From a virus (Duplodnaviria > Heunggongvirae > Uroviricota > Caudoviricetes): a stretch of 64,000 bases of DNA. The stretch is taken from the IMG/VR virus record IMGVR_UViG_3300013121_000003, positions 34,674 through 98,673 of that record. One strand, given 5' to 3'. Below are positions 13,583 to 58,606 of this stretch, one piece after another (the stretch's first letter is position 1; every line of letters begins with the position of its first letter). The position numbers and the translations under genes were made by a program. The notes beneath the pieces were generated by a model that worked only from the letters and a program-made list of their open reading frames with translations, was not told the origin of the DNA and did no database searches.

Positions 13583-14083
13583 TTAAACTTTAATCCTCTG
13601 TTTTCCGTTGTTGTCGAAATGACCAAGTTGTTTCAATTTTTCTCTATGAGAATCGTCGCCATGTCTCCAAATTAATCTGGCTGTATCGCTATTTAATTTA
13701 TGTTTATTCATGAGGTTATGAAGCTGTTCATGATCTGAACGATAAGCAATTTCATATTTAGTACAATCATCTAAATCATGTTCATTAACTAATCTATCAA
13801 TATTTTTCTCTGATCCTTTTTTCGCAATTTCTTCTTTAGCGACATGTGGTAAAGGTCCGTTTAATAATTTATGATGAAACTCTGGAAAAAAATAAGCAAC
13901 TCGAAATTTACAATTATCACTTAATTTATGTTTTTCTAGCAATTTTCTAACATGATTTTTGTTTTGTTTAATAATAATTCCTGTATACTCTTCTTCAGAC
14001 AAATGAGGTTTATCAATAAGTTTATCCACATAACCAGGATGATCTTTTTCGATTAATTTACAAGATGAAAATTTATCTAGCAT
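13583..14083 (-). CDS. MLDKY-family 26-aa helical-repeat protein (copy 1)
   Basis: MLDKFSS start; repeats such as IAKKGSEKNIDRLVNEHDLDDCTKYEIAY; TAATG overlap with the gp14 stop. Confidence 0.75.
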   Translation of the reverse strand: MLDKFSSCKLIEKDHPGYVDKLIDKPHLSEEEYTGIIIKQNKNHVRKLLEKHKLSDNCKFRVAYFFPEFHHKLLNGPLPHVAKEEIAKKGSEKNIDRLVNEHDLDDCTKYEIAYRSDHEQLHNLMNKHKLNSDTARLIWRHGDDSHREKLKQLGHFDNNGKQRIKV

Positions 14084-14814
14084 TAGTAATTCTTCTCACT
14101 AAATGGATTGCTTTCCGTAAAATCTACAATTGTGTCTTCATTCTGTTCTGTTTGGATAGCGACGTTATCATCTCCCATGTCAATGTCTAAAACGGTCTGA
14201 TAACCAGACGAGACGATCATAGAACCATCATGACTGACCATGTAATAATTCGAATGATCGATGATGCCATGATCGATGATGTTTTGAGTATGCGTTCTGA
14301 ACATAACGTCGATTGCATCGATTCCAGTGATGAATTTTTCTGACGAGTATTCATAGACTTCACAAGTCATATTGAAAGTTTGAAGATGTCCGAGTTGATA
14401 AAACGTAGGCTTATTGTCCACGAACATGATTTGGAAAATCTTTCTGTTCATGGGGAAGTAAATTAAGTCACCTTCTCTGGGAGCCAATATATCTTCAGGA
14501 GTTCCGATTTCTAGGTCGAAACGTCTCCGAGAAATTGTAAAGATTATTTGATCACGAATTTCCACGTCAAATTTAGACATGAAAATTCTATCACCACTGA
14601 ACCCATCAATAGATTTAATATACATTTCAACAGGATAAGCAGTGTCGAATGTTGACTGATCATCCGAATAAGTTAATTGATCAAAGTTGTTTCTTCTTCT
14701 GGGGAGATAAAGAAATTCCTGTCCATATTGCTTGATCGACTCGATAACCAAGTCTTCTAGCAAGTTTTGTTCTGATGTTCTTTTATCTGTTAAGAAGAAT
14801 GTGTTAAGAGTCAT
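14083..14814 (-). CDS. gp14: Neck protein
   Basis: [67 protein letters not shown]. Start placed at the ATGA overlap with the HNH stop. Confidence 0.95.
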
Positions 14815-15287
14815 TTTAGATGATTCCAAATTTTTCTATGTTTTATATAAGATATTAATCCAGGAGAAACACAATAATCCTTTGCAATTTTTGTGTGTTT
14901 TTCGTTGTTATTAATTCTCTTTCTAATTTCTAAAACATCATTATCTTTTAATTTTGATAAACCGTGCCGTTCACCTTTAGAATTAATTTTTCTTCCTTTT
15001 GAATCTCTATCTAAAGAATTTTCATATGGTGTTCCTAAAAATAAATGATTAGGATTACAACAACTAGGGTTATCACATTTATGACAAACTAATAATGAAC
15101 CTGGATCAATTTTAAAAGTTAATATCCAAGATGCTCTATGTGCTCTAATATCATTTTTTTCGAATAATTTCCAAAATTTTCCATAACCATCTTTATCTTT
15201 ACCACATTTCCATTCCCAACAAGAATCCTTATCTAAAATATTAACTTTTGACCAAAATCTATCTATAGGATTTAATTTTTTTTTCAT
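14811..15287 (-). mobile_element. Free-standing HNH homing endonuclease
   Basis: [56 protein letters not shown]-rich; overlaps the gp13 stop (TGATG) and the gp14 start (ATGA). Confidence 0.9.
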
Positions 15288-16270
15288 CAAGATACTATGT
15301 CCAATACTGGTATACTCCAACTGTTAAGAAGTTCATCGTCTAGAACTTTTAATTCTTCAACAGCTTCATCGTATATCGTTTGACCAGAAAAAACAATGCC
15401 TCCTGGCAACATCATTCCACTGAACTTCTTCAGATTCGTTCCCCATTGTTTCTTCATGAGTTCTGTGGCATAGCGAATGAGCCAACGATCCTTCCAAATA
15501 TCTGTATACGTATCAGGATCAAGAACATTATAGCATTCAAAAACAATATATTCGCCTAATGTCAATCTCTGTTTGGCTTTATCAATATAGAGTCGATTAT
15601 GGTTCTTATTATAACGAAATGGAGTCTGTCCAACCAGAACATCGTGGAACAACTGAAGATGCTGCATTGACATGTAGTAAGGAACTAACTGAGAATTCGT
15701 CAATGTATAGATGTTGTTTAATGCCATTTGGTAGTTAATTGAAAACATATCGGCACCAGTTGACAAGTATGAAAGTGGAAAGACTCTAGAGATTCCGATT
15801 ATGTTTTCTGGCAATTCGATATAACCACCGAGTTCCGCTGTAATCGAAGCACCAGAACCACCAGATGTTGTGATAGAAATTGTTGGGGTTGTTGCGTATC
15901 CAGCACCATTGTTAGCTAGATTGACCGCAGTGATTGTTCCGTTTCCATTTGTGGTAATTGTTGCTTCTGCATTTGCAGAAAGAGCATGATGCCCATTAGA
16001 AGAAAAAACAACAGTATCAGAATTCGAATATCCGGTTCCACCAGATACAAGAGTTAAATGATGAATAGCGTCTGAGAATAGATTAGCTACTACTTGATAT
16101 TTGTAATAATGCTTGATGGTTCCATCGAAATGATATTCAGCATACTTAGAAAGTGCATAGTCAATTTGATTCTGAATTTGCTCTTCAGCCAAATTGATTT
16201 CGAGAACCGGAGCACCAAGCTGTTCTAGACAATATTCTTTGAATTCTGTTCTACTTGCAGGAAGAGCCAT
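15287..16270 (-). CDS. gp13: Neck protein with an inserted beta-rich module
   Basis: [95 protein letters not shown]. Confidence 0.95.
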
Positions 16271-16300
16271 ATGAAATACCTACTATTGTTATTTTGTAGG

Positions 16301-16308
16301 TATTTATA
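16301..16308 (-). promoter_or_regulatory. T4-late-type promoter TATAAATA upstream of gp13
   Basis: Exact T4 late consensus about 30 nt before the gp13 start. Confidence 0.75.
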
Positions 16309-17898: not shown

Positions 17899-17915
17899 AA
17901 TTTATCCTTTTGATT

Positions 17916-19861: not shown

Positions 19862-19896
19862 GGTTCCAATATCTCCCCTTGTTTATTGTTATTTTT

Positions 19897-19972: not shown

Positions 19973-19986
19973 GCATTTAATTTTAT

Positions 19987-20625
19987 TTATGAAGTTAGCG
20001 GTTTTACTAATATAAAAGAACCATCTGGTAAGTATTGTCTTCTCTTTCCTTTTGCGGATTGTGATATCTTATTTCTTAAGTTTTCTTTTTCTTCTTTAGT
20101 TCTATTATTCCAAACAGATTTCATTCCTTTAGATTTTTTCTTTTTTATATCATTTAATTCTTCAATACTTTTATTGTAATAAGTTTTTTTCCAATTTTCG
20201 GAATGTTGTTTTAAATGTAGTTTTCTTGTGTTATGAATTTTTTCATATAATATCTTTTTCTCTTCTTCCGTCATTTTCTGATGTCGTCTTTTACCAACAT
20301 CTGAAAGTTTTTGTCTAGTAATTTTCTTTTCATCTTCTGTAAGAAGAGCGTAAAGATTTCCTCCACGAGCATTTTTACTTATATTATATCCATGTTTTCT
20401 TCGTTCATATGATTGATAAAAATTTATCCAATATTCTTCTGCTTCATCCAATTCTTCTTGAGTTGAACATTCTTGAAGAATTGTTTTTGTAAAATTTTCT
20501 TTACCATATTTTTTAATAGCATTTAAAATTAATCGGCCAGAACCATAATAATTCGGCCGATTTTTAGAATCTTGTCCTACGTATATTTTATTGTTTATAT
20601 TGTTAGTAATTAAATATACTTGCAA
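19987..20625 (-). mobile_element. GIY-YIG (Seg-like) homing endonuclease
   Basis: VYLITNNINNKIYVGQ...YYGSG..ILNAIKKYGKENF..TILQEC...ELDEAEEYWI...GYNI; very AT-rich; TTG start. Confidence 0.9.
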
Positions 20626-20745: not shown

Positions 20746-20778
20746 GTTTAAACTCCTTTAAATGTCTTTAGTTTCTTC

Positions 20779-20786
20779 TATTTATG
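20779..20786 (-). promoter_or_regulatory. Late-type promoter CATAAATA
   Basis: tatttatg on the plus strand, about 35 nt upstream of the 39-aa gene. Confidence 0.5.
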
Positions 20787-20789
20787 TTA

Positions 20790-21125
20790 CTAGAAATATG
20801 ATGGAATATATCCTAAATGTTTTGTCAAATATTCCTTTTGTTCTTGAGTTCCATATTTATATATTTGTCTTTTATGAGAATTGTTCAATTTTTGATGTTT
20901 TAATAAGGTGGTATGATGTGAACTATGTTTGAAAGCAATTATAAGATCGTGTTCATCAGAATCTAATTTGTGATTTTTGATTAATTTATCAACTTGTTCA
21001 TCGTCCCCATGATAAGCAATATCGTATTTGTGTTCATCTGACAAATTCGGATCATTTAGACAGTTGTCGATTGTTGGTTTATGACCTTTTCGAATTAAGG
21101 CAGATATGGAATATTTGTCTAGCAT
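20790..21125 (-). CDS. MLDKY-family repeat protein (copy 2)
   Basis: MLDKYSIS...NPNLSDEHKYDIAYHG-type opening; 26-aa period; TAATG overlap with the holin-like stop. Confidence 0.75.
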   Translation of the reverse strand: MLDKYSISALIRKGHKPTIDNCLNDPNLSDEHKYDIAYHGDDEQVDKLIKNHKLDSDEHDLIIAFKHSSHHTTLLKHQKLNNSHKRQIYKYGTQEQKEYLTKHLGYIPSYF

Positions 21126-21589: not shown

Positions 21590-21826
21590 TCAATCCATTC
21601 TTCTTAATTTAGCTCTATGTTCTTCATTTCCGGAAAGCGCAATCCATCTTTTTGTTATATAGTCTAGTTCATGTTCGTCTAATAACTTATGTTTTTGAAC
21701 ATTACTTCCAAAAAAAGCTATTTCACGTTTTTCTATATGAGATACATTAGGATTAGACAAACATTTGTCTATCCATCCTGGATGCTTACGAATGATTAGT
21801 TCTACAGATGAATATTGGTCTAACAT
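21590..21826 (-). CDS. MLDKY-family repeat protein (copy 3)
   Basis: MLDQYSSVELI...WIDKCLSNPNVSHIEKREIAFFG; 26-aa period; TAATG overlap. Confidence 0.75.
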   Translation of the reverse strand: MLDQYSSVELIIRKHPGWIDKCLSNPNVSHIEKREIAFFGSNVQKHKLLDEHELDYITKRWIALSGNEEHRAKLRRMD

Positions 21827-22185
21827 TATTTTTTCACTTCTGGTTCAACTTCTGGTTCAATATCTGGCTCTGGTGAAGGCGGAACCTTAAAGGCAACTGA
21901 AGTCAATGTCTCTAGGATTTTCATCTTCTCCTGTCCACGAGAATAAGCCGTGACGCCAACAATCAACATCATTGAGATATGATAAAGGCCACCGGAACCC
22001 AATGTGATTGGATTCCAGGGAACGAAATCATGTGCAGAATAGTATTGTGACTGAAATATGGCATTCATGATTGGAGCTATCAAGAAATCAAATAAACAGA
22101 TTACCAGATAGCTCCATCCCATTGATGGACGCCATAATCGCTGATACCAAGATTTATCAGCTATTTTGGATTGAAATTCATCCAT
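21826..22185 (-). CDS. Second holin-like membrane protein (3TM holin type)
   Basis: WYQRLWRPSMGWSYLVICLFDF, LYHISMMLIVGVTAYSRGQEK. Confidence 0.65.
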   Translation of the reverse strand: MDEFQSKIADKSWYQRLWRPSMGWSYLVICLFDFLIAPIMNAIFQSQYYSAHDFVPWNPITLGSGGLYHISMMLIVGVTAYSRGQEKMKILETLTSVAFKVPPSPEPDIEPEVEPEVKK

Positions 22186-47120: not shown

Positions 47121-48677
47121 TTAGCCCACCAGCGTCAACTTCTGCTTCGCCCGAGTGATGGCCACATAGATGATATTCTTCTCTTGCTCTTTCTCCCACT
47201 CTTGCTTGGCCATCGGGGACGGCATGTACTCACCGAACCCGAGGATGTAGACCGAATTCCACTCCCGACCTTTCGATTTGTGAACCGTCGAGAGCGTCAA
47301 AGTCTTAACCTGCTTGGCATTGTCGTCATGTTGATCAGCGAAGATGTTGTTGATCTTGGCGACAACTTCATCGATCATCTTGCAACCTTCACAGATCACC
47401 CGGATCGTTTCAACCTTATCGGTAATCTGTTCGGCCAGCAAGTTCTTCTTCTTCTCGATTGCCTTCTTGATCTGGGCACACGACCACTTTTCGAGCTTCT
47501 CAAGATACTTCTCGACCGACTTAACTTTCCACTTGGTAATCATTTCGATCAAGTTCTTGCCGATGTCCCGACCTTCGACGTGGCAGGCGATACCTTTCCG
47601 AATGAGAGTGTAAGCCAGTTCGACCAACGGTGCAGTCTTGCGGCAAAGGATAGCATCTTCCTTGGTCAGCTTATCGAAGACTTCAGAAAACTTATCCCGA
47701 GGCATCGCACCAACCGAACCAACCGGAGCCGTCTCATGTGCCTGGATATGAGAAACATAGTTCTGGGCACAACGAACGACTTCCTTGGGGCAACGATACG
47801 TGACAGTCAGAGGCAGAGCCGTGCACTTGAAGTCCTGCATGATCTGTTCAACAGAGTCAGCATCGGCGCCAGTGAAACCATAGATTGCCTGATACCGATC
47901 ACCAACCCAAACCATCCGACCATTGGGAGCAACCATCTTCGAAGCGAGTGCACGACGAGCCGGGTTCGTATCTTGAGCTTCATCAACCAGAACCCAATCA
48001 TGGGGAAGCATCTTAATTTGCTTCAGAACCGGCAGATAGATCATATCATCGAAATCGATCTTTTGCCGTCCCATATCGTTCGAAACATGAAGTGTCTGAA
48101 TTGCGAATTCGATACCAACTTCGACCTTCGAGTCCTTATCCAGATCAGCTTCAAGGTTGTGATGATCAACAATCTGATTCCAGTTCTGGCGATCATCGAT
48201 CATGCCGAAATGACCAAGAGCGGCTTGCTTAGCCAGTGAAACCAGCTTGCAAACAAACGAGCGATAAAGCTCAACAATCCGGTCCTTAGAGAGAACTTCG
48301 CCAGCTTCATCACAAAGCACGATATCACTTTCACGAACAATGTTCGTAAAGATGTTCGAAACTTTGTAGCCATCGACGAAATCCCGAGGCGGATACTTGT
48401 GGCCGCAATGGAACTTCCAAGCGTTCAAGCCGAACGAATGGAACGTGCCTGCGAAACACTTGATGCCACGAGCAACCGTCTTTTCCTTCAGTTCGTCAGC
48501 AATCTTCTTATTGTAGGCAACGAAGGCAACCTTGCCCTGCATGAAGGCAGCACCCTCAAGAAGAGAAGTGGTCTTGCCAGCGCCAGCGACAGCCTCAAGA
48601 AAGGCATTGCCAGAACCGTTCTTGATCCAGTCAAAGTAAGTTGCCTGCTGGGGGGAAGGAAGGAAAGCCATTGTCAA
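47121..48677 (-). CDS. UvrD/Rep-like superfamily 1 helicase
   Basis: LEAVAGAGKTT, AYNKKIA, TFHSFG, IDFDDMI, VLVDEAQD, VGDRYQAIYGFTGA, LTVTYRCP, STVHKSKGREW, IYVAITRAK. Confidence 0.93.
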   Translation of the reverse strand: MTMAFLPSPQQATYFDWIKNGSGNAFLEAVAGAGKTTSLLEGAAFMQGKVAFVAYNKKIADELKEKTVARGIKCFAGTFHSFGLNAWKFHCGHKYPPRDFVDGYKVSNIFTNIVRESDIVLCDEAGEVLSKDRIVELYRSFVCKLVSLAKQAALGHFGMIDDRQNWNQIVDHHNLEADLDKDSKVEVGIEFAIQTLHVSNDMGRQKIDFDDMIYLPVLKQIKMLPHDWVLVDEAQDTNPARRALASKMVAPNGRMVWVGDRYQAIYGFTGADADSVEQIMQDFKCTALPLTVTYRCPKEVVRCAQNYVSHIQAHETAPVGSVGAMPRDKFSEVFDKLTKEDAILCRKTAPLVELAYTLIRKGIACHVEGRDIGKNLIEMITKWKVKSVEKYLEKLEKWSCAQIKKAIEKKKNLLAEQITDKVETIRVICEGCKMIDEVVAKINNIFADQHDDNAKQVKTLTLSTVHKSKGREWNSVYILGFGEYMPSPMAKQEWEKEQEKNIIYVAITRAKQKLTLVG

Positions 48678-48750
48678 AGTCTCCCTCTTTTGCTATAAAT
48701 CTTTCACCAACGGATTGTCCGTTGCAATTATTAATAAAGGGAGTTGCGCC

Positions 48751-49041
48751 ATGAGTCAAGAGAAAAGTGCATTTAAGTACGAAAAAAATCTGATGGATTA
48801 CTGGACAATCATTGCCCTTTCCAAGAAGTGCAATGTGGTTGTTCACAAAATCTATGAAGCTGCTGAAAACAAACATTATTTTGTCATGTTCGTGGAAGAC
48901 ATATCATCCAAGGGAAGACGGTTCATCGCCAAGAAAGAGTTGAGTGTTGATATGGTCAAGATGATCGTTTACGGATCAGCGTTCAATAGAATCCGAACGA
49001 ACCTTCGTCCCATGGATAAAGAGCAATTGGTTCGTCTGTAA
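48751..49041 (+). CDS. Hypothetical protein
   Basis: ATG at 48751 follows an AAGGGAG RBS; divergent from the helicase. Confidence 0.6.
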   Translation: MSQEKSAFKYEKNLMDYWTIIALSKKCNVVVHKIYEAAENKHYFVMFVEDISSKGRRFIAKKELSVDMVKMIVYGSAFNRIRTNLRPMDKEQLVRL

Positions 49042-49060
49042 TTTGACCGGGAGAGCACCG

Positions 49061-49324
49061 ATGCTTGATGAATTTTCGATTAGACAACTTTCCACACAAG
49101 GAAATATACAGGTAATTATAAAAAACGCTAAAAGAAAATCAGACTATTGTTACATTGTAATTATTATTATTTATCATATTTATTGGCAAGAAGAATATAG
49201 ACGTTATCGACGATATACTAAAGAATTTAGATTTAACATAGACCCGTTATTGTATAATAAAGTGTTTATGCAATCATATTATCATTGGCACGACATTAGA
49301 AACGACTGTTCGTATATCTACTAA
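49061..49324 (+). CDS. Diverged, possibly decayed MLDKY-family member (copy 4)
   Basis: MLDEFSIRQL start; very AT-rich; a +1-frame segment IIFIGKKNIDVIDDILKNLDLT fits the repeat register. Confidence 0.45.
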   Translation: MLDEFSIRQLSTQGNIQVIIKNAKRKSDYCYIVIIIIYHIYWQEEYRRYRRYTKEFRFNIDPLLYNKVFMQSYYHWHDIRNDCSYIY

Positions 49325-49391
49325 TTTCGAAATAGATAGATCAAAATTTCTCGAACTTAGACATTATGTTCGTCCAACTATTTACTGAAAT

Positions 49392-49414
49392 GAAAAAGGG
49401 GCCTTCCGGCCCCC
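49392..49414 (-). terminator. Intrinsic terminator after the 49424-49741 gene
   Basis: Minus strand GGGGCC-GGAA-GGCCCC-TTTTT. Confidence 0.8.
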
Positions 49415-49423
49415 ATTTCGTTT

Positions 49424-49741
49424 TCAAAAACTTGGGTCTTGTTTGGCGTTCCAGGTTCCCAGATGAAGAGTTCCAGAACTTTCACTCTTAGGTCCGAATC
49501 GCTTGTATTTCCGTTTCCAGGTGAAGATTTCCGTTCGGCCCTTCTCGTTTCGGATGATCTTCCAATGTTGCTGTCCAAAGTAATCATGCTTCTTCTCTTT
49601 GTCGGCAACAAAGTTGTCGTATTGAACAACTATTTCTCGAAAGTTCCGGTAAACCTCGATGACAGTTACCGGATATGCATCTGAACCAATCGAGTAAGTT
49701 CCGTGCATTCCGACTTCAACCTTGATTTCTGGCTTGCTCAT
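49424..49741 (-). CDS. Phage hypothetical protein, standalone cassette
   Basis: 105 aa; VGMHGTYSIGSDAYPVTVIEV...WNAKQDPSF; own RBS, promoter-like site and terminator. Confidence 0.7.
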   Translation of the reverse strand: MSKPEIKVEVGMHGTYSIGSDAYPVTVIEVYRNFREIVVQYDNFVADKEKKHDYFGQQHWKIIRNEKGRTEIFTWKRKYKRFGPKSESSGTLHLGTWNAKQDPSF

Positions 49742-49767
49742 TACCCGCTCCCGTTGTTGATTTCTTA

Positions 49768-49796
49768 TATTTAAATCGATTCGTTTAAAAAGTCAA
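49768..49796 (-). promoter_or_regulatory. Putative sigma70-type promoter overlapping the PAAR stop codon
   Basis: TTGACT-17 nt-TAAATA(TAAG) followed by CAACAACGGGAG, similar to the 44717-44745 site. Confidence 0.45.
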
Positions 49797-50071
49797 TAGG
49801 CTGAAACTGACCCCGAATGCCCTTTAGTTGCGTCTGCACTTCCAGAATGAAATAATCCATCGATCTGAGCTTGATCTGGATTGTGAACAATTACTTTTTT
49901 TCCAGCAATTGTGACGGAACCTTTTGAAGCAATCAATTCACCAGCGCCATGTGAATTTTCATCGCCTTCAACGGCCCAAAGTCGGCCGTTCACGGTAACA
50001 GAACGCTGCCCCACGACGATTGTGGTAGCAGCGCACTGTCTTGCATCACCTTGTCTGTGTGCTCCTGGCAT
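49793..50071 (-). CDS. PAAR-like spike tip protein (gp5.4-like)
   Basis: MPGAHRQGDARQC, SVTVNGRLWAVEGDENSHG, SVTIAGKKV; downstream of gp5. Confidence 0.8.
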   Translation of the reverse strand: MPGAHRQGDARQCAATTIVVGQRSVTVNGRLWAVEGDENSHGAGELIASKGSVTIAGKKVIVHNPDQAQIDGLFHSGSADATKGHSGSVSAY

Positions 50072-50994
50072 TACCCAAGAGTTTCCTTGATCATGGCGTG
50101 GATCATCTGATCTTCACCAGTCAGGACCGACTTGTGCTTGTAGTCCTTGGCTGCTTCAACGTCCGTGAACTTCATGGCATCAGCTTCATCACCAACCCAA
50201 TTGGTGATGCCATTCATCGAGCCGCCGAAGAACATGCCGTCTTGACGCTGGATTGCATAGTTCTTGGGCTTGTTCGTGATCTGGGGAACAGGACCACGAG
50301 TCGGAGCTTCGTCGTAGATCACCTTGTATTCCTGTTCGATCATCGGAACAGGTTCGGCCCGAAGTGGAGTCGGAACCTTCTGGCCGAAATTGAAGCCGAG
50401 GTTCTTGCCGACCGACTTCACGAACATCTCATGAGCCGAGTAGAAGAGGCCATCGAGTTCGAACCCACCCATGGTTGTCATGGGAACGTCTTCCATTCTC
50501 TTGTAGGCAGTGAGTTGCAGATCACGAACGGCGATCTTGCAAATCGCCGTCTCTTCGGGAGTCTTTTCTTTTCTGAGACAATACATTGATTTATCCTCTA
50601 TTCCATGGCCACCGTCAGCCATAGCATCACGTTTAACAGACTTCTTAACCTCAGTCAACTCAACTTGAAGAGCATTTCTTTCTTTTCTGAGATCGGTGAG
50701 TTCTTGTGACATCTGTTCGATGATTTTCCACATTATATCTTGTGTTTTGGTATCATTTGTTTCCGTTATATATGGATTTGGTTGTCCATAAATGTAAGTT
50801 GGATTTATTGTATATGGACTTGTCGAATAGTATTCAAAAGGCAATGTAGTTGTCGTTGTTGTTCCTGAACCAATTACAAGAGAACCTGAATAGGTTGTTA
50901 AATCGGAAAGTTTATATTCAGCTTTGTTCCAATCTGTTAGAGATTTTTCAGTTCCTTCGGCTACATTATTTGTGTATAAAGTATTTTCTGTCAT
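50071..50994 (-). CDS. Hypothetical protein between gp5C and PAAR, apparently chimeric
   Basis: 308 codons from MTENT after an AAAGGAA RBS; AT-rich T/Y/P-rich N-half and GC-richer C-half. Confidence 0.6.
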   Translation of the reverse strand: MTENTLYTNNVAEGTEKSLTDWNKAEYKLSDLTTYSGSLVIGSGTTTTTTLPFEYYSTSPYTINPTYIYGQPNPYITETNDTKTQDIMWKIIEQMSQELTDLRKERNALQVELTEVKKSVKRDAMADGGHGIEDKSMYCLRKEKTPEETAICKIAVRDLQLTAYKRMEDVPMTTMGGFELDGLFYSAHEMFVKSVGKNLGFNFGQKVPTPLRAEPVPMIEQEYKVIYDEAPTRGPVPQITNKPKNYAIQRQDGMFFGGSMNGITNWVGDEADAMKFTDVEAAKDYKHKSVLTGEDQMIHAMIKETLG

Positions 50995-51004
50995 ATATTT
51001 TCCT

Positions 51005-51583
51005 TTATGCTGTATATCCGCTTCCACCATCTGATGGATTGAGCGCTAAATTTGTTGCTTGAATTGTATGTTGAGAACCAGAACCATGATACATGGTCCC
51101 TTGAGCTTGAATGTTCATGTTGCCCATCGCATTCATATTTATAGAGCCCTTAGCAGCGAGATACATATTTCCATTTACGGAAAGACCTAAATCGCCAAGA
51201 ACGGCCATTGCGGTTTTACCACCAATGACAACGCCAGCATCCCCTTGAATTTCCACATGAGTTCCGCCAGCGACAGTCATTTTATGATGTCCGCCGATAT
51301 GAATATCACTGTTTTCATCAACAGTAATTGTGACGCCACCTTTATTATATTGCTTGTTTTCTCCGATAGTCATGGTGGCTAATTTGCCATCGGGGAAAAA
51401 TTCTACATAAGTTCCAGAAGGATGAAAAAGTTTAATTGCTTCTTTTCCTCTTTCATCACCAACAACGAGCCGAACACCACCAGGAAATTGCCATACGTTA
51501 TTGTATGGATATTGACTTTCTGGTGTTTCGTCTGTCTCTATTCTATCTTTAGTAGGTTTATTATAAACTTCTTCTGCTGCCAT
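51005..51583 (-). CDS. gp5: Central spike, C-terminal beta-helix part (gp5C-like)
   Basis: ESQYPYNNV, GDERGKEAIKLFHPSGTYVEFFPDG, followed by 8-residue-like V.I.G repeats. Confidence 0.85.
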   Translation of the reverse strand: MAAEEVYNKPTKDRIETDETPESQYPYNNVWQFPGGVRLVVGDERGKEAIKLFHPSGTYVEFFPDGKLATMTIGENKQYNKGGVTITVDENSDIHIGGHHKMTVAGGTHVEIQGDAGVVIGGKTAMAVLGDLGLSVNGNMYLAAKGSINMNAMGNMNIQAQGTMYHGSGSQHTIQATNLALNPSDGGSGYTA

Positions 51584-51589
51584 TACTTT

Positions 51590-51873
51590 TTATCTGACTC
51601 CAAGTTGTATTCCATAATTTCTTAAAGCAAATTTAACGTCATCATCCATATTTTGATGTTTAATTATGTTGTCTATATGTTTTTCATTTCCGTCTTTTTA
51701 TTATTTACCAATTGGTTATAATATATCCAAAATTGAACAACTGTTCCAAAACGAATTATAGCATCACCTTCTTCTATAGATAATGGTTGAACTATCATTT
51801 TCTTTAAAAGTTTATCTGTATATCCTGGATATTTTTGTTTGATCAACTCTTTAGAAGAGTATTTATCTATCAT
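51590..51873 (-). pseudogene. Frameshifted MLDKY-family member (copy 5)
   Basis: MIDKYSSKELI frame stops at 51673, but the -1 frame from 51697 reads DGNEKHIDNIIKHQNMDDDVKFALRNYGIQLGVR* (stop at 51590), an in-register 26-aa repeat. Confidence 0.65.
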
Positions 51874-51877
51874 TTCT

Positions 51878-52216
51878 TTACCACCAAGCACGGCTTTTAA
51901 GAGCACCATAATTTTTTGCTGTTTGTCGAGTAAGATCATTTCCAAGAAAATATATGTACCACAAAGATTTTTGTGATACTTTATGACAACGCATCAAACA
52001 AAGACGTTCTCTATTATTTCCCTTATGTGCAATTTTAAATTTAGCGTTTGCATGTAATTTAAAATTCTTGATTAAGTAGATTTTTTGTTTGGTAGTTCCT
52101 TTTTCTGCAATAGCTAGTTTTTCAACGGATGAAATTTTTTTATTCTTTAAACATTTGTTTATCCATTTAATATTACCATGATAAATAATGGATGCTGACG
52201 TATATTTGTCTATCAT
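51878..52216 (-). CDS. MLDKY-family repeat protein (copy 6)
   Basis: MIDKYTSASII..WINKCLKNKKISSVEKLAIAEKG; ATGA overlap with the gp5N stop. Confidence 0.75.
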   Translation of the reverse strand: MIDKYTSASIIYHGNIKWINKCLKNKKISSVEKLAIAEKGTTKQKIYLIKNFKLHANAKFKIAHKGNNRERLCLMRCHKVSQKSLWYIYFLGNDLTRQTAKNYGALKSRAWW

Positions 52217-53151
52217 GACGTTGGAACCGAGTTGGCGCTACTTGGGTTGTTGTTCAGTTCGTCGTTCTCTTCTTGCAGTCTCTTCAACTCTTCTTCTTTT
52301 TGCTGATCTTCTTCATCTTTCTTCTTCTTGTGCTTCTTAATCAAATTCATGATAGAAGTCAATGCGTTAATGATATTGTTCATTCCACCGATGGAATTCG
52401 GCATCCTGGGATTTGAACCAGTTTCGGCTGTTTTCTTGAGTGATTCGAGCATGTTAACGGCACCATCAATCAATTCTGAACGTGGTGTAGATTGAACTTG
52501 TCTCTGTGAGTTTCTACCTAAATCCCATGGTAGAACTGAGAATGGCATTGGTTTTTGGCCTTCTGGAATTCTAGCGCTTTCTCTTTCATTATATTGTGGA
52601 GAACCAGCAGCTATATTAATTCCACGTTTCTTATCGTTTGGACCTACTCTTGTCCATTGAATTGGAGTTTCTGAATTCATTATACTAAGAACTGCACTCG
52701 TGATTGTTTCGAGTTCGTTTAATTGCTGTCCGCCTCTTAAGATTCGTCTATGTTCCCGTTGTCCATCACGAACTTTAACTGGTGATGTGGAAGTTGATTC
52801 TGGATGCCGATCTTCTTTTCCAGGAGTTGTTTCGGAATTTGTCAGGGAACCGATGACAACGAAACCTTGTTGACCAAGATTTTGCATCATGATTCGAGTT
52901 CCAGGTAAATAAGCACCACCAGCCGGAAATCTACCAACTCCCTTGGTCTGTGAATATCCGTTTGTTAAAACTGGATACCATGGAAGTTTGTCATCTGGAA
53001 CTTGAGATAAATCTTCTTGTTCACCAACGATTCTAACTTTGATTCGTCCTGTTTCATTTGGGTCTTTATTATCGACAACAACACCAATAACAACAGATTG
53101 TTCTCTAGTTAATCCAGATTTATCAGACGGATTTTTTTCGTCGTAACTCAT
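52213..53151 (-). CDS. gp5: Central spike/hub, N-terminal OB-fold part (gp5N-like), no lysozyme domain
   Basis: VIGVVVDNKDPNETGRIKVRIVG, IPDDKLPW-type motif (VPDDKLPWYPVL), QGFVVIGSL. Confidence 0.85.
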   Translation of the reverse strand: MSYDEKNPSDKSGLTREQSVVIGVVVDNKDPNETGRIKVRIVGEQEDLSQVPDDKLPWYPVLTNGYSQTKGVGRFPAGGAYLPGTRIMMQNLGQQGFVVIGSLTNSETTPGKEDRHPESTSTSPVKVRDGQREHRRILRGGQQLNELETITSAVLSIMNSETPIQWTRVGPNDKKRGINIAAGSPQYNERESARIPEGQKPMPFSVLPWDLGRNSQRQVQSTPRSELIDGAVNMLESLKKTAETGSNPRMPNSIGGMNNIINALTSIMNLIKKHKKKKDEEDQQKEEELKRLQEENDELNNNPSSANSVPTS

Positions 53152-53488
53152 TGATCTCCTTCAAAATATTATTAAATGCTTTAATATCTACACAATGTCT
53201 AATAGTATTTAAAATAACTCGATCATCATTAGTTAAACCTTTTGTAGTCATAATATGAACATACAAAATAGCACTATTCATATTGTCACCACTTATAGCG
53301 ATTCTCATTTTTGTATTATAATCAAGTTCGAAAATATTGTTTAATAATTGTCTTCTATGTTTATGATTTCCATAAAAAGCAATATCATATTTTTCTCTGT
53401 CAGATAAATTAGGATTTCTAAGGAGTATATCTATCCATTTCTCGTTTTTACTTTTTAGAAGAGTTCTGGTTGAATACTTATCTAACAT
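53123..53488 (-). CDS. MLDKY-family repeat protein (copy 7)
   Basis: MLDKYSTRTLL..WIDILLRNPNLSDREKYDIAFYG; its ATGTTAGATAA supplies the upstream gene's TAA. Confidence 0.75.
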   Translation of the reverse strand: MLDKYSTRTLLKSKNEKWIDILLRNPNLSDREKYDIAFYGNHKHRRQLLNNIFELDYNTKMRIAISGDNMNSAILYVHIMTTKGLTNDDRVILNTIRHCVDIKAFNNILKEINELRRKKSV

Positions 53489-53867
53489 CGGAATCATCCT
53501 TTGATTCTTTCTGCCGTTGAACTCTTCGTTCATCAAAAATTCTGTTTATTACATGACGATTTCCATAAGAATAGATCATTGATATTAAGTATCGGTCGCT
53601 TTTGTTTAATGGAATTGGTTTTCGAAGTTCAATCTCTTCCAATAAAACAACTCTATGAAAATCTGTTCCCCATATAACAATTCTTCGTTTGGTCATAATG
53701 TCGAGATTGTTAATGTTCATTAAAAGTTTATCTCTATGTTTATCTGTTCCATATCGAGCAATATTGTATTTTTCAAGATTCGATATATAAGGACTATCCA
53801 AACGAATATCAATCCATTTTGTGATTCCTCTAAATATCAAAAGATCGGATGAATATTTGTCTAACAT
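53478..53867 (-). CDS. MLDKY-family repeat protein (copy 8)
   Basis: MLDKYSSDLLI..WIDIRLDSPYISNLEKYNIARYG; its ATGTTAG supplies the upstream gene's TAG. Confidence 0.75.
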   Translation of the reverse strand: MLDKYSSDLLIFRGITKWIDIRLDSPYISNLEKYNIARYGTDKHRDKLLMNINNLDIMTKRRIVIWGTDFHRVVLLEEIELRKPIPLNKSDRYLISMIYSYGNRHVINRIFDERRVQRQKESKDDSDVR

Positions 53868-54187
53868 GGCCATCCTCTATTTCTCAGTTCGATCATATGT
53901 TTCTCGTTTCCAAACCTTAGAATGGTATTAACTATGCATCGATTTAAAGTATGGTTTTTTATCAATTTCATTCTATGTCTGTGAAATCCTTTAAATGCAA
54001 TTCGTCTTTTTATCATATACGATATGTTTTTATATTCTAATACTTTATCAAATATTTTAATTTTTCCGTAAAATGTAATCCAATCTAAATCATAATTGGA
54101 TATATGACATTTAGTATTTAAAAGTTTTTCAATATGATTGTGTTTGTTTAATTTGATAATTTTCCTGATTGAATAATCATCTAGCAT
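53861..54187 (-). CDS. MLDKY-family repeat protein (copy 9)
   Basis: MLDDYSIRKII...IKRRIAFKG...ILRFGNEKH. Confidence 0.7.
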   Translation of the reverse strand: MLDDYSIRKIIKLNKHNHIEKLLNTKCHISNYDLDWITFYGKIKIFDKVLEYKNISYMIKRRIAFKGFHRHRMKLIKNHTLNRCIVNTILRFGNEKHMIELRNRGWPC

Positions 54188-54190
54188 AGT

Positions 54191-54424
54191 TCACCTATGA
54201 TGTTTCTTGACATACTGGCGAATCGGCTTGTTGCCAAAACGTGCGATCTTGTCTATCGTATACGGATCGAGAGTGTGGTTCTTGAGTAATTCCCACCGAT
54301 GTTCATGTGTTCCGAATTGTGCTATCCAATCCTTTATATCGTTCGTTACGTTCGGGTCTTTGAGAACTTCGTTGATCGTTCGTTCGTTTCCCTTACGCAT
54401 CTTAAACAATACAGATGGTTTCAT
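54191..54424 (-). CDS. MLDKY-type repeat protein lacking the MLDKY start (copy 10)
   Basis: DPNVTNDIKDWIAQFGTHEHRWELLKNHTLDPYTIDKIARFG, 26-aa period. Confidence 0.65.
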   Translation of the reverse strand: MKPSVLFKMRKGNERTINEVLKDPNVTNDIKDWIAQFGTHEHRWELLKNHTLDPYTIDKIARFGNKPIRQYVKKHHR

Positions 54425-54426
54425 AG

Positions 54427-55665
54427 CTATCCCTTCAATTCTACACCAAATATATCAGTTGTCCCGTTGACAGTCACTTCTTTTCTGTCTTTCCCTTCAG
54501 TGAACCTTAGTTCATGTATGAGCCTCGCTACCCATAGTTTTTTGACACCGATCATCCTATCAGATATAGGATATGTAATTTGTATACGATCTCCAACCGT
54601 TACGTCAATCCCTGTCTGCATGGGAACTGAAGTCCAATATTTTGGTGAATATGTCAATTTTGTGATGAAGGCATCTTCTTTAGACTGAAATCCACCAGGA
54701 CCATTCTTGTCAATGTTAAGATGTTGTCTGAGTGAATCGGCAACATATTTGGAAATTTGGCTTCCATACTTTACACCAAATCCTCCACTTCCTGTCTTGG
54801 CAATACCTTGAGCTAGATCAACAATTGCTGGAACTTTATTTAATCCCTCATGTTCGTTTCGAGAAGCAGCCGAACGGTCTTCACCAGGGGGAGCCATTGG
54901 TCTAAAGTTGATGACCTTATCATATCCTCTTAACGTAATATCTAAAGAAGCTCCACCAGCCGGAACATGAACAAAGTTTCCGGTAATTGGCGCAGAAGTA
55001 ATCAAATATTCTAATGGAGCAACTACATATCCATTCTTGCTTCTAAAGTAAACTCCTGGACCAGAACTTGGAACAGGAAAGACTGCTTTATCCAATAAGT
55101 CATGAATCGCTTTAGATGGAGCTTTAGATAGAATTTGATGTGGATGAAGTTGTTGACCAATCATTCCTAGAGAATCAAATACATCAATATTTCCATTTGC
55201 TTTAATATACTTTTCATGAATTTGTCTGATTGCATGAGTTGCAATTTGATTTGAAATATTCATCTGAACTTGTTCAGACTTGTCCTTGAAGTATTCTTCA
55301 CCAAGTAAAGAAATAGTAATGATCATTGAATTCTCGATATCTCCTTCACGTGGTTTAGATTCATAGGAATAAATTCTAAATCTTTCGGTGTAGATTTTAT
55401 TGTTTGGTGGAGATATGAAAGAAATTTCGACTGGTGCTTTTGGTTCAACGTATTGCTCGAAAGTATTTTGATGAGCTTCGATAACCAGTTGTCCAGTGAA
55501 GTAGAATTTACAGTTATCTTCGAAGATTCTAAGTTCTTGAACATGGAAAATGTTCAATGGTTGTCCAGAACGATTTTCAACGAACGGAACTCCATTGATT
55601 GTGCAACTGATTAAAGCTGCTTTGGTTGGTTGTATAATATAATTTGGTGTTTGCTGAACTGTCAT
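54427..55665 (-). CDS. Baseplate hub protein (gp27-like)
   Basis: 412 aa between gp53 and gp5; ELRIFEDNCKFYFTGQLVI, VPMQTGIDVTVGDRIQI, KLWVARLIHEL. Called mainly from position and size. Confidence 0.6.
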   Translation of the reverse strand: MTVQQTPNYIIQPTKAALISCTINGVPFVENRSGQPLNIFHVQELRIFEDNCKFYFTGQLVIEAHQNTFEQYVEPKAPVEISFISPPNNKIYTERFRIYSYESKPREGDIENSMIITISLLGEEYFKDKSEQVQMNISNQIATHAIRQIHEKYIKANGNIDVFDSLGMIGQQLHPHQILSKAPSKAIHDLLDKAVFPVPSSGPGVYFRSKNGYVVAPLEYLITSAPITGNFVHVPAGGASLDITLRGYDKVINFRPMAPPGEDRSAASRNEHEGLNKVPAIVDLAQGIAKTGSGGFGVKYGSQISKYVADSLRQHLNIDKNGPGGFQSKEDAFITKLTYSPKYWTSVPMQTGIDVTVGDRIQITYPISDRMIGVKKLWVARLIHELRFTEGKDRKEVTVNGTTDIFGVELKG

Positions 55666-56543
55666 TAAGTATTCGACATCTTGTTTACGAAATCATTTAT
55701 TAAGAATGGAGTAACTTCTTTTCCTAATATGTTGATAATTTTGTTTTCTTCATTCTTGGCAACTTCATAATCATAATAATAAACTGGCGACCAATAAGCT
55801 CCTTCTTCTGTCGAAATGTTAGTTACCACAACGTTTGACGAATTTGCTGTTGCGTTGGCCGCAGAAGTTTCACCAACAATGTAAGTATTTGTTGACGAAT
55901 TGGCAAAAGAGTTTCCTGAAATTGATTGAACACGAACAACAGACGAATTGGAAAAGACAACTTCAGCGTTGGCAATCTGATTTCCAGGAACGAAGATATC
56001 AACAAGTTCACCAGAAGTGAATGAGTTTCCAGATACAAATGAAATTGTGTAATCAACGAACATGTTGGTATTCATCGTATGATTTACACGCTTCCTTCTA
56101 TATCCCAAAATCTTGTTATTTTCAGAATAAATGGGTTCCCAATATTTCTTGAGAGCCAAAGAAAGATTGTTGTTGTAATATGATTCTTCGATAATTGTTT
56201 CGGCATTCTCATGCCAGTTGTTCATGTAATATTTGATCTTCTTCTTGGCAGTTTCGGCAGAACCATATTTGTCGATGATTGCTGATTCTAATTGGTCTTG
56301 ACGAATATACCAACCATAGTATGGATCGACAATATCATTCGAAAGATATATCAACCAATCGAGTTGTGCATTATCATAATAATAAGCAGCAAGTTGATCA
56401 GAACGAAGATAAGTCTTCAATTCATATGGATAGAAAATATATGGAGAACTTCCATCATTACTTTTTAAAGCAATGCGTCTTGTGATATCCACCACTTCTT
56501 TATTATCATATTCTATCTTGGGAAATGTTGCGAAATATTTCAT
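55665..56543 (-). CDS. gp53: Baseplate wedge subunit
   Basis: MKYFATFPKIEY, DITRRI, RSDQLAAYYYDNAQLDWLIYLSNDIVDPYYGW, YYDYEVAKNEENKIINIL. Confidence 0.9.
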   Translation of the reverse strand: MKYFATFPKIEYDNKEVVDITRRIALKSNDGSSPYIFYPYELKTYLRSDQLAAYYYDNAQLDWLIYLSNDIVDPYYGWYIRQDQLESAIIDKYGSAETAKKKIKYYMNNWHENAETIIEESYYNNNLSLALKKYWEPIYSENNKILGYRRKRVNHTMNTNMFVDYTISFVSGNSFTSGELVDIFVPGNQIANAEVVFSNSSVVRVQSISGNSFANSSTNTYIVGETSAANATANSSNVVVTNISTEEGAYWSPVYYYDYEVAKNEENKIINILGKEVTPFLINDFVNKMSNT

Positions 56544-56547
56544 TGTT

Positions 56548-57486
56548 TTATTGGCTTTCAGGTGTGCTATTTATACCTGCCCCTGGAATTGAAGGTGTTG
56601 AAGGTGTTGAAGGTGTTGAAGGTGCCGGGTTTGAATTTTCTTCAAAAATTTTAGTTCTATCAGAATTTCCGAATAGTCCTCTATTGAAATCATTTTCAAG
56701 CCAATAATCGATTTCAAGAAAATTGATTCTCATGATAATAGATTCAGGAGCACCAGTTTCTTTATAGAAAATATTTCGATGATTTCCGCCTTGATAATCA
56801 AATTGAATTCCTGTTATTACGGCTGGTTTAAAATTATAAAGATATTCAAAATTTGGAAAAAAGAAGCATAAGAAAATATTAGGAAATCCAAACACAAAAG
56901 GAGTTCCGATAACAGGCACAGTTCCACTTTGTCGAGGATGCATTCCTTTCTTTATTTGCATTTCGATTCTTTTAATTCTTTCTGATTCTTCTTTATTTTT
57001 TGGTGATAATTTCCATTCAAACGAATAACTTCTAAATTGTGGAGCCTGTAAAGTAACTTGTTTATAATTATTTACACTGAATCCTAAAACACTACTTAAT
57101 GCATTTCCAATATTTCTGTCATTAATTCCTACTACTGATGATATTGCACCAAGCCAATTAAAACCATGATCATATTGAACTTCATATCCATCAGATAATT
57201 GTGATGGAAGTGGAAGTCTATATCCTCTTTTAACAGTTAAATTATTTCCCCAAAATGGGTTTGTTCCTCCAAGTCCAGGTTCCATTTCTATAATACCAAA
57301 ATAATATTTTGGTAGATCAAACGGAAAATTGAGAAAAGATGGAGACGATAAAAGTGATTGTTCTTGATTTACAATTCTTTCTACATTTCCATTAACTCTC
57401 AAACCATTGAACAACGGATTTGTAATAACCTGATTTGCAGTTGGTCTAGAAACCAAATTGTTTCTGATATTATTGGAAATTGCCAT
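56548..57486 (-). CDS. gp48: Baseplate tail-tube cap
   Basis: YRLPLPSQLSDGY, APQFRSYSFEWKLSPKNKEESERI, FGFPNIF, KPAVITGIQFDY, RINFLEI. Confidence 0.8.
   Translation of the reverse strand: MAISNNIRNNLVSRPTANQVITNPLFNGLRVNGNVERIVNQEQSLLSSPSFLNFPFDLPKYYFGIIEMEPGLGGTNPFWGNNLTVKRGYRLPLPSQLSDGYEVQYDHGFNWLGAISSVVGINDRNIGNALSSVLGFSVNNYKQVTLQAPQFRSYSFEWKLSPKNKEESERIKRIEMQIKKGMHPRQSGTVPVIGTPFVFGFPNIFLCFFFPNFEYLYNFKPAVITGIQFDYQGGNHRNIFYKETGAPESIIMRINFLEIDYWLENDFNRGLFGNSDRTKIFEENSNPAPSTPSTPSTPSIPGAGINSTPESQ
56568..56575 (-). promoter_or_regulatory. T4-late-type promoter TATAAATA upstream of gp53, inside the 3' end of gp48
   Basis: Exact consensus about 25 nt before the gp53 start. Confidence 0.65.
56589..56624 (-). 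repeat. 9-nt tandem repeat (4 copies of TTGAAGGTG on the plus strand) encoding a Pro/Ser/Thr linker in the gp48 tail
   Basis: APSTPSTPSTPSIP. Confidence 0.85.
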
Positions 57487-57523
57487 AAGTATCCTTCGTA
57501 TTAAATCTAGTTAATTACTTATA
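57484..57523. promoter_or_regulatory. Overlapping divergent late-type promoters: CATAAGTA (plus, toward gp4) and TATAAGTA (minus, toward gp48)
   Basis: cataagta at 57484-57491 and tacttata at 57516-57523 in a 45-nt divergent gap. Confidence 0.55.
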
Positions 57524-57531
57524 AGAGAAAA

Positions 57532-58002
57532 ATGAAACCAAACATAGATTCTAAAAGTAAAACACTCAAGACTATATTCAAACCAAAAAATCCGCAGAAA
57601 TATAAAGGTGACTGCACTAAAATCATATCGAGAAGTTCATATGAACTGAAGTGTATGTTAATGTTCGATTCAAATCCAAATGTCATTTGGTGGCAATCCG
57701 AAGAACGTTCTATCGCCTATCGTTCTCCTGTTGATAACTCTCTCCATCGATACTTCCCAGACTTCATTATCTGTATCAAAGGCAAGGATGGAAAGCAGAA
57801 GATCAAAATGATTGAAGTAAAGCCGAAATCACAAACTAAAGTTCCTGTCAAGACCCCCAAGAAGAAAAAATACTTGACCGAGGTTGTTCGGTACTCTATC
57901 AACATCGCCAAATGGAAAGCAGCCAAAACATATTGCGAACGCAAAGGTTGGGAATTCGAAATCCTCACTGAAGATGAAATCTTCGGGAAACGAACATGCT
58001 AG
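57532..58002 (+). CDS. gp4: Head completion nuclease (TnsA N-terminal-like)
   Basis: FKPKNPQKYKGD, RSSYELKCM, WWQSEE, YRSPVDNSLHRYFPDF, IEVKP, NIAKWKAAKTYCERKGWEFEILTE. Confidence 0.92.
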   Translation: MKPNIDSKSKTLKTIFKPKNPQKYKGDCTKIISRSSYELKCMLMFDSNPNVIWWQSEERSIAYRSPVDNSLHRYFPDFIICIKGKDGKQKIKMIEVKPKSQTKVPVKTPKKKKYLTEVVRYSINIAKWKAAKTYCERKGWEFEILTEDEIFGKRTC

Positions 58003-58313
58003 ACAAATATTCGTCTGTGATTCTAATCCAGAAATATCATACACAATGGATAGATAAGTGTTTGTCTAATCCTAATATTTCTGATATAGAAAAAAGTTAT
58101 ATTGCTGGTTATGGAACGGATGACCATAGAACTAAATTACTCGAAAATCATAGATTAGATAATTATACAAAACTTTGTATGGCTTATAATGGAAATGATG
58201 TTAATAGAACTAAATTACTTGAACATCATAATTTAGATTTCCACACAATATATTGGATTCGGCGCAAGGGAACTGATGAACACAGACAAAAACTAAGGAG
58301 AATGGGGCTCTAA
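57996..58313 (+). CDS. MLDKY-family repeat protein (copy 11)
   Basis: MLDKYSSVILI..WIDKCLSNPNISDIEKSYIAGYG; exact 26-aa G-to-G period; its ATGCTAG supplies the gp4 TAG. Confidence 0.78.
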   Translation: MLDKYSSVILIQKYHTQWIDKCLSNPNISDIEKSYIAGYGTDDHRTKLLENHRLDNYTKLCMAYNGNDVNRTKLLEHHNLDFHTIYWIRRKGTDEHRQKLRRMGL

Positions 58314-58606
58314 TGCTAGACAAATATTATTCTTTCAAATTAATCGAAATAAAAAACGAACGATGGATAAATAAATGTTTGTCCAATCCTAAACTGACAA
58401 ACGAAGAAAAATTTCGTATTTGTGTATTTGGAAGTGATTACGAAAAAAGGTTATTGATCGAAAGACATAATTTAAATTATGCATGTATTCAAGACTTATA
58501 TAGATATGGAAATGATGTTCACAGAATAGCTTTAAGAAGGAAAATATTGTCAACTAAATACCATGACAAAAGACAAATGGAATGGTTTAGGAATCGATTT
58601 GGCTAA
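58313..58606 (+). CDS. MLDKY-family repeat protein (copy 12)
   Basis: MLDKYYSFKLI..WINKCLSNPKLTNEEKFRICVFG; TAATG overlap. Confidence 0.75.
   Translation: MLDKYYSFKLIEIKNERWINKCLSNPKLTNEEKFRICVFGSDYEKRLLIERHNLNYACIQDLYRYGNDVHRIALRRKILSTKYHDKRQMEWFRNRFG

Follow-up and report, generated by a model that had tools for sequence, protein, structure and literature searches.

The stretch of DNA analyzed here (the window) comprises 64,000 nucleotides, which correspond to bases 34674-98673 of a 163,167-bp virus record (IMG/VR IMGVR_UViG_3300013121_000003), and harbors a dispersed family of small genes, the MLDKY genes, most of whose products begin with the motif MLDKYS..LI. These genes probably constitute a lineage-specific, fast-evolving multigene family of small stand-alone alpha-solenoid proteins of the LRV type, which would provide the phage with a diversified panel of binding proteins. 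Feature coordinates given below are window positions unless they are marked as genome positions.

Family membership was assessed with a profile hidden Markov model (HMM), which was built from ten window copies and iterated over all open reading frames (ORFs) of the genome. The model matches 20 ORFs at 55-260 bits as well as two weak ones, and at least 19 intact copies are recognized in the 163-kb genome by ORF listing, alignment and HMM, 10 of them in the window. When each ORF was shuffled five times and each member 200 times, a single match of 17 bits was obtained, and hence the similarity among the copies is not compositional. A preliminary description of the window had listed 12 paralogs, 11 of which are supported (10 intact and one frameshifted). 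The remaining ORF, 49061-49324 (+; GC content 0.28), is not supported as a family copy, since only about 10 N-terminal residues are family-like and no HMM match was found in any frame, even with filters off; its resemblance could be due to chance or to far-advanced decay of a former copy. The supported copies are as follows.

13583..14083 (-), family copy of 166 aa, HMM score 152 bits; between gp14 (14083-14829) and gp15 (12735-13580), overlapping the gp14 stop (TAATG)
20790..21125 (-), family copy of 111 aa; directly 3' of the gene of a 153-aa membrane protein with a TAATG overlap; positional ortholog in the relative L001
21590..21826 (-), family copy of 78 aa; flanked by the 153-aa gene and by a holin-like gene (21826-22185)
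51593..51873 (-), broken copy; between the N-part and the C-part of gp5
51878..52216 (-), family copy of 112 aa; 4-nt overlap of its start with the gp5 N-part stop
53123..53488 (-), family copy of 121 aa; last of four tandem copies from the hub gene to the gp5 N-part, whose start is overlapped by its 3' end (29 nt)
53478..53867 (-), family copy of 129 aa; third of the tandem four, terminating at a TAA within the 5' motif of the next copy
53861..54187 (-), family copy of 108 aa; second of the tandem four, terminating at the TAG within the ATGTTAG of the next copy
54191..54424 (-), family copy of 77 aa; first of the tandem four after the hub gene, without the MLDKY start, GC content 0.43
57996..58313 (+), family copy of 105 aa; nearest to the family consensus, with gp4 terminating at the TAG within its ATGCTAG start
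58313..58606 (+), family copy of 97 aa; TAATG overlap with the preceding copy, last 8 nt overlapping the probable TTG start of gp2 at 58599

Three-frame translation of the broken copy places its N-terminal 66 codons in one frame and the last repeat together with the C-terminal end in another, and the HMM accordingly matches at 51676-51993 and at 51593-51697. The copy at 57996-58313 contains an internal 78-nt direct repeat, which is 73% identical.

The repetitive nature of the proteins is evident from their self-similarity, for which an offset of 26 residues is best in 16 of 19 copies (z up to 22). The preliminary description had called this repeat strict, which is overstated, as some units comprise 25 or 27 residues and two copies deviate. 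Tandem Repeats Finder detected no array in the window copies, and a single-unit repeat HMM was too strict for counting units in diverged copies. An AlphaFold2 model of a 186-aa member, which was computed from a 28-row alignment, attained a pLDDT (per-residue model confidence) of 96.4 and contains 14 helices, two per 26 residues; the predicted fold is a right-handed two-helix solenoid. Among solved structures of matching period, 1LRV (1lrv_A) fits best (Z 10.7, root mean square deviation 3.0, 172 residues on 172 consecutive residues), a match that denotes shared architecture and not proof of common descent, because helical repeats often give middling Z scores. Designed armadillo proteins were top-scoring in the structural search against representatives but span about 280 target residues for 180 aligned ones. 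The nearest clusters of the ESM Atlas belong to Pfam LRV, LRV_2, HEAT or DUF2336, with template modeling (TM) scores of 0.7-0.77 (0.71-0.77 for the LRV clusters), and several of them are viral. The question of a HEAT/LRV-like solenoid, which had been raised beforehand, is answered by a confident model that points to the LRV type.

At the level of sequence, the connection to LRV proteins emerges among relatives of the family. The Pfam LRV model (PF01816) is not matched at E <= 0.1-1 by the window copies or by the members of 186, 194 and 221 aa, but its gathering cut-off of 21.6 bits is exceeded by two relatives linked through the profile, namely P0016 with 25.8 bits and P0029 with 34.7 bits. 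Matches to HEAT (PF02985, cut-off 23.5 bits) occur among relatives only and nearly all stay below the cut-off (15-22.5 bits), P0029 alone passing with 25.8 bits. A profile search of 1.84 billion representative proteins returned 84 hits, which comprise the copies of this genome and metagenomic proteins with up to 13 units of G.DEHR.(K/E)LL...LD..TK..IA, while a word-indexed protein search with one copy gave no match. Judged from the repeat register, the MLDKYS..LI start appears to be the second helix of a unit, so that the protein would be repeat from residue one. The N-terminal 14 residues are the best conserved part of the family, with 47-49% pairwise identity versus 18-30% in the repeats. 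In T4 internal proteins, an N-terminal targeting peptide ends at a prohead-protease site (L/I-x-E); no conserved L/I-x-E follows the conserved N-terminus in the family alignment.

As had been noted before, the copies are more AT-rich than the core genes, the copy at 54191 excepted. Their median GC content is 0.281 versus 0.358 in other genes (Mann-Whitney p = 1.4e-9), and GC at the third codon position (GC3) is 0.205 versus 0.29 (p = 1.6e-5). Since GC is lower at all three codon positions, GC3 included, the AT-richness is not just a matter of amino-acid content.

Comparison with related phages reveals how the family evolves. Positional orthologs are less similar than the genes beside them, with 71% versus 89% identity for the copy at 21590 and its counterpart in L001, and 57% versus 78% for the copy at 54191 and its counterpart in L030. 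The corresponding ratios of non-synonymous to synonymous substitution rates (dN/dS) are 0.17-0.31 for the copies and 0.07-0.08 for flanking genes. Hence, the copies evolve faster than their flanks yet remain under purifying selection. Older paralog pairs show dN/dS of 0.17-0.73 at near-saturated synonymous divergence. The family tree is star-like with long branches, and only two ortholog pairs form well-supported groups, the copy at 54191 and its L030 ortholog being such a clade; a tandem pair and one young trio are grouped with weaker support.

The occupancy of junctions varies with the distance between phages. In L001, whose 153-aa flanking protein is 89% identical, an extra copy follows the 153-aa gene and another one precedes the ortholog of the 78-aa copy, and L030 (78% identical in the hub protein) carries at least three copies after the hub gene. 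Phages that are 67-68% identical in the hub protein possess a single gene of 180 or 210 aa in the hub/gp5 junction; the 180-aa gene (of the 67% phage) is the profile hit P0012, and the 210-aa gene resembles the profile hit P0013 by length alone. L029 (66% identical) contains a weak 75-aa member together with metabolic cargo between gp4 and gp2. Finally, in L028 and L031 (62-63% identical) hub and gp5N, gp5N and gp5C as well as gp4 and gp2 are directly adjacent, and no family members occur across 21 kb of these phages. Three filled junctions are therefore empty in the more distant phages. The copy at 54191, which is GC-normal, positionally conserved and devoid of the MLDKY start, may be the founder at the hub site, and the junction of gp4 and gp2 seems to be a hot spot for insertions in general among these phages. 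The L029 cargo (L029:4842-7707) encodes the domains PS_Dcarbxylase, DDAH-like and PAD_porph.

The young trio lies outside the window, with genome positions of about 0, 19 and 105 kb. Its members are mutual closest relatives with proportions of synonymous differences (pS) of 0.01-0.04 and of non-synonymous differences (pN) of 0.08-0.13, which indicates recent copying between distant loci. Among their eleven complete 78-bp units, 14 of 26 codons are identical, and 11 of the 12 polymorphic codons differ non-synonymously (pN/pS 7.4), unit codon 25 occurring in six alleles. A diversity-generating retroelement was rejected as the source of this variation, since a search of the 163-kb genome for RVT_1 at E <= 1 revealed no reverse transcriptase and some variable sites are not adenine changes (TGG/TGT, GAT/GAA). 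Taken together, the family is both old and dynamic and follows birth-and-death evolution; it is not a recent burst, because most copies are old and very diverged and some are conserved in position in relatives. In accord with the earlier notion of an expanding family, it is still changing, as attested by the extra copies in L001, the recent trio, the frameshifted copy and the three junctions that are empty in the phages 62-63% identical.

All copies are encoded on the strand of their neighbors, as had been stated for the window, and are tightly packed. The gap to the upstream gene is mostly -1, -4, -7 or -11, and most copies overlap both neighbors (gaps of -1 to -44). The start of a copy and the stop of the preceding gene share nucleotides as TAATG or ATGA, or that gene terminates within the first codons of the copy (ATGNTAG or ATGTTAGATAA). 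The copies occupy 14 or more different junctions; most are scattered across the whole genome, singly or in short tandems, and a 5' motif at the DNA level is common to them. Among 16 copies with a direct ATG start, 15 have NTA as the second codon; CTA is used seven times in this position, though it accounts for just 9% of the leucine codons elsewhere in the family, and the three copies whose motif is preceded by an additional residue do not retain NTA. This synonymous-site constraint preserves a TAG in the +1 frame, and the built-in TAG serves as the stop of several upstream genes. Apart from the shared coding motif, the flanks of the copies contain neither inverted or direct repeats nor target duplications, and Pfam reveals no transposase or nuclease domain in them, in agreement with the initial inspection. 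Devoid of any Pfam domain and of flanking repeats, the copies do not qualify as transposons or homing-endonuclease elements. A single gene separates the copies at 13583 and 20790 from free-standing endonuclease genes (HNH-like, 14811-15320, (-); GIY-YIG-like, 19987-20625, (-)).

The T4-type late promoter TATAAATA occurs at 16 sites genome-wide, whereas 35 are expected from base composition, and 11 of the 16 sites sit 22-33 nt upstream of a same-strand gene start. Two of them are inside the window.

16308 (-), late promoter site TATAAATA
56575 (-), late promoter site TATAAATA

None of the 16 sites precedes a family copy. The 5' motif itself was dismissed as a late promoter, as its best match reaches 7 of 8 positions and 0 of 16 exact sites fall on copy starts. 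An assignment to morons or PeSL-type cassettes was likewise rejected, because most copies overlap both neighbors and none is preceded by TATAAATA. One such promoter lies inside the 3' end of a family copy (genome ~841) and serves the following gene. Shine-Dalgarno-like motifs are not enriched (12 of 22 before copies versus 84 of 158 before other genes), and no RNA dataset was listed for the examined region or for the four tandem copies.

With respect to genomic context, PHROG matches identify the T4-type neighbors of family copies as gp15, gp14, a split gp5, a gp27-like hub protein, gp53, gp4 and gp2. The gene names first proposed for the window junctions are thereby upheld except for one of the two presumed holins, since only the other matches a holin family. 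The listed gp2 ORF (58563-59225, +) starts with 12 residues that are absent from relatives, and the TTG at 58599 aligns with the relatives' starts. About 12 copies reside in late structural blocks, the others beside genes of replication, recombination, transcription and nucleotide metabolism (DNA polymerase, gp55, UvsY and primase among them) and one after a tRNA; a spread into late operons, as previously proposed, therefore describes the window only. The copy next to the tRNA starts a few bases past the tRNA 3' end (genome 126908-126949; the upstream sequence ends ...GGTTCGAGTCCC...CCA), and the same arrangement is found for P0067 of a relative.

These observations show family membership, fold, gene layout, selection and turnover, and from them we infer how the genes may be expressed and what their products may do. 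Each protein consists of a starting half repeat (the MLDKYS..LI helix), followed by 2-6 more two-helix units of 26 residues and usually by a conserved end cap. Its gene is a bare ORF between two existing genes, with no visible promoter or terminator of its own and with a start that overlaps the upstream stop (TAATG, ATGA, ATGNTAG). Expression would rely on transcriptional read-through and on translational coupling and would be timed by the surrounding operon. The family grows by tandem duplication, by copying into distant junctions and by gain or loss of 78-bp units, and shrinks by frameshift decay. Purifying selection acts on the helical framework while positions in loops and at helix edges vary. 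The products would be protein-binding modules with differing surfaces. Their targets may be host or defense factors, or else partners of the large late protein with LRV repeats that the phage itself encodes. Arms that are fused to a conserved N-terminal domain in other phages are homologous to the repeat arm. Of the two readings left side by side by the preliminary description, a selfish mini-cassette or a panel of binders, the second one fits the fold and the pattern of variation.

Several observations weigh against this interpretation. No window copy matches any family or domain in Pfam, and the PHROG matches are weak (phrog_20647 at 1e-4 to 5e-5). The non-synonymous excess in the trio is marginal when it is expressed as a minimum event count (about p = 0.06, hand calculation); moreover, the same variants are reshuffled among the trio units, which points to gene conversion, and this may contribute to the excess. 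The conserved N-terminal 14 residues are not explained by a pure model of variable binders alone, and the low GC3 together with the junction-adapted 5' motif is also compatible with a partly selfish element.

The most serious competitor, albeit an unlikely one, assigns the MLDKY proteins the role of interchangeable arms, which would dock by their N-terminal half repeat onto the late protein P0085; the resulting complex would travel with the virus particle and exert its effect when the next infection begins.

genome 17643-19247 (+), outside the window, late gene of P0085, 534 aa; TATAAATA 30 nt upstream

P0085 consists of an N-terminal domain of about 260 aa with an invariant WCT motif and of a HEAT/LRV-like C-terminal arm. 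According to a reading of the repeat register, P0085 and its ortholog P0184 both terminate after the first helix of a unit, while every MLDKY protein begins with the second helix. In addition, the P0085 gene is directly followed by a 186-aa family copy with a 4-nt overlap, and that of P0184 by a 178-aa gene that likewise overlaps it. Other phages encode fused forms: P0004, P0021 and P0028 join a P0085-type N-domain (E = 7e-21 and 3e-5) to MLDKY-type repeats, and neighbors of the N-domain in the Atlas carry LRV, ankyrin, LRR or DUF4116 arms. The repeat is thus common to larger phage proteins with a fused conserved N-terminal domain, an observation that goes beyond the preliminary description. 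The docking idea would also account for the N-terminal 14 residues being the best conserved part of the family, and it agrees with the late promoter at P0085 and with a distant homolog of the N-domain in Pseudomonas phage PA5oct (pairwise E = 2e-10, common GKGTxWCTA motif), which is annotated as a structural protein detected by electrospray ionization tandem mass spectrometry; 93 virion-associated proteins are described for this phage (PMC7318152).

On the other hand, docking is a hypothesis that is read from sequence, the repeat arm of P0085 is not matched by the family HMM, and the homology to the PA5oct protein is distant (23-24% identity). About half of the copies reside in early or middle blocks, which poorly fits a late co-assembly, and the conserved N-terminus may be a mere solenoid cap or reflect a constraint at the DNA level. 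A complex prediction for P0085 with the copy at 57996 scored 0.00, which counts neither for nor against binding, and the model of the N-domain (pLDDT 79) found no fold match in the PDB at E <= 0.001. The more specific version, in which the roughly 20 MLDKY proteins are interchangeable specificity arms that complete the open half repeat of a virion-borne P0085 to form a split solenoid, is slightly less likely still. If it were true, a single phage could load or eject binders in many combinations, directed against host factors or defenses that vary.

Improbable, and more so than docking, is the view that the ORF spreads merely since its ends are adapted to harmlessness, with 5' stops in other frames and a 3' overlap with the next start, while the protein confers no benefit on the phage. 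The occupation of at least 14 different junctions, the variable copy number among close relatives, the low GC3, the constraint at codon 2 that keeps the +1-frame TAG, one decaying copy and the homing endonuclease genes near two loci (14811-15320 and 19987-20625) would all suit such an element. However, searches for a transposase, a nuclease, a reverse transcriptase and terminal repeats were all negative, and 19 frames remained intact despite saturated synonymous divergence. Because the orthologs are under purifying selection (dN/dS 0.17-0.31) and the fold is confidently predicted, a purely selfish cassette is unlikely, the more so as larger conserved proteins contain homologous repeat arms as functional parts. 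Least credible of all, and very improbable, is a family of modular nucleic-acid binders in the manner of PUF, PPR or TALE proteins, in which each 26-aa unit would read one base via few variable residues: RNA-bound PUF domains are the best-superposed Foldseek hits in the PDB (TM 0.6, E about 4e-3) and near-identical units differ at a handful of fixed positions, but these hits are weak and gapped (240-250 alignment columns for 186 residues), 1LRV and the LRV/HEAT clusters fit better, the proteins are short (2-6 units), and the units are rich in Asp, Glu and His besides Lys with no obvious basic groove.

The panel of LRV-type binders thus remains the preferred reading, and it concerns a T4-like phage of an uncultured lineage, as its DNA polymerase is only 43% identical to the best GenBank relatives, which are T4-like cyanophages. 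The overall GC content of the genome is 36%, and outside the window it encodes gp43, gp55, UvsY, primase and a tail tube protein. Among GenBank phages, no match was obtained by megablast with 10 kb of DNA or by tblastn with one copy, the hub protein and a 351-aa repeat arm. Scans of IMG/VR and JGI metagenome loci with the hub protein, the gp5 N-part, one copy and the family alignment yielded no confirmed relative or usable pattern. Near-identical DNA is contained in activated-sludge runs of several studies; a comparison of four such runs with 48500-59500 gave short contigs only (225-1013 nt) and no joints, and loose contig ends at copy starts are probably cross-matches among paralogs.

Some further features of these genomes deserve mention. 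The 47-bp 'direct terminal repeat' of the record (genome 1-47 and 163121-163167) falls within the 78-bp units of a family copy that spans the record ends, and may be an assembly overlap inside a repeat; once the ends are joined, this copy has 5 full units, a number that is uncertain. At 56589-56624, a perfect 9-bp tandem repeat (four units) at the 3' end of the gene of a 312-aa protein (56548-57486) codes for a Pro/Ser/Thr-rich tail, and the sludge contig X1 has different letters between both sides of this repeat, whose number may hence vary. In L029, a UvrD-type helicase of 1113 aa (L029:12548-15889) includes Hint and LAGLIDADG domains (an intein), whereas its window homolog of 518 aa (47121-48677) has neither domain.

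In general, the variation of T4-like phages is attributed mainly to 'hyperplastic' regions with small accessory genes that are unrelated to one another. In the present genome, by contrast, about 20 copies of a single helical-repeat scaffold have been placed into the tightest junctions of core operons. A kept framework with a changing surface is the signature of a natural binder library, comparable to immune receptors and designed repeat proteins. If the targets were factors of host defense or takeover, the family would represent a large unexplored class of phage-host interaction proteins and at the same time a ready-made small scaffold for engineering. Moreover, the design of the 5' end at the DNA level illustrates how an operon with translational coupling can accept an additional gene with no harm to the neighbors of that gene. 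Nothing relevant on LRV or HEAT repeat families in phages was found in the searched literature, where the family is undescribed.

Among known systems, PeSLs, reportedly described by Arbiol et al. in 2010, are small accessory ORFs between conserved genes of T4-type and other phages. Like these cassettes and like morons, MLDKY genes are small accessory ORFs that lie between conserved genes and differ among relatives; unlike them, they mostly lack flanking non-coding DNA, whereas PeSLs and morons carry their own promoter and a stem-loop or terminator. The ankyrin-repeat families of poxviruses and the multigene families MGF360/505 of African swine fever virus (ASFV) comprise many paralogous repeat genes with strain-variable copy number, which presumably encode binders for host interaction. 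For one MGF member of ASFV, an action on a host factor is documented (PMC13342108). The likeness resides in the many repeat-protein paralogs per genome and in a copy number that varies between strains, but repeat type, realm and host are different, and the genes of poxviruses and ASFV cluster at genome ends with their own promoters, in contrast to the promoter-less MLDKY ORFs wedged into operons.

A close resemblance also exists to LRV proteins (PF01816/PF25591; Azotobacter vinelandii, 1LRV). Both share a tandem helical repeat of the same period (the Pfam LRV model has 26 positions), 1LRV can be superposed on the predicted two-helix solenoid, LRV/HEAT clusters are its nearest neighbors among predicted structures, and some relatives found with the family profile exceed the Pfam LRV cut-off. 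Nevertheless, the MLDKY motif G.DEHR.KLL.NH.LD..TK..IA differs from the usual LRV motif DP..VR..VA.NP.TP..L..LA, and the window copies miss the Pfam model. In addition, MLDKY proteins lack an Fe-S domain and are set apart as very small stand-alone arrays, which are present in about 20 copies per genome.

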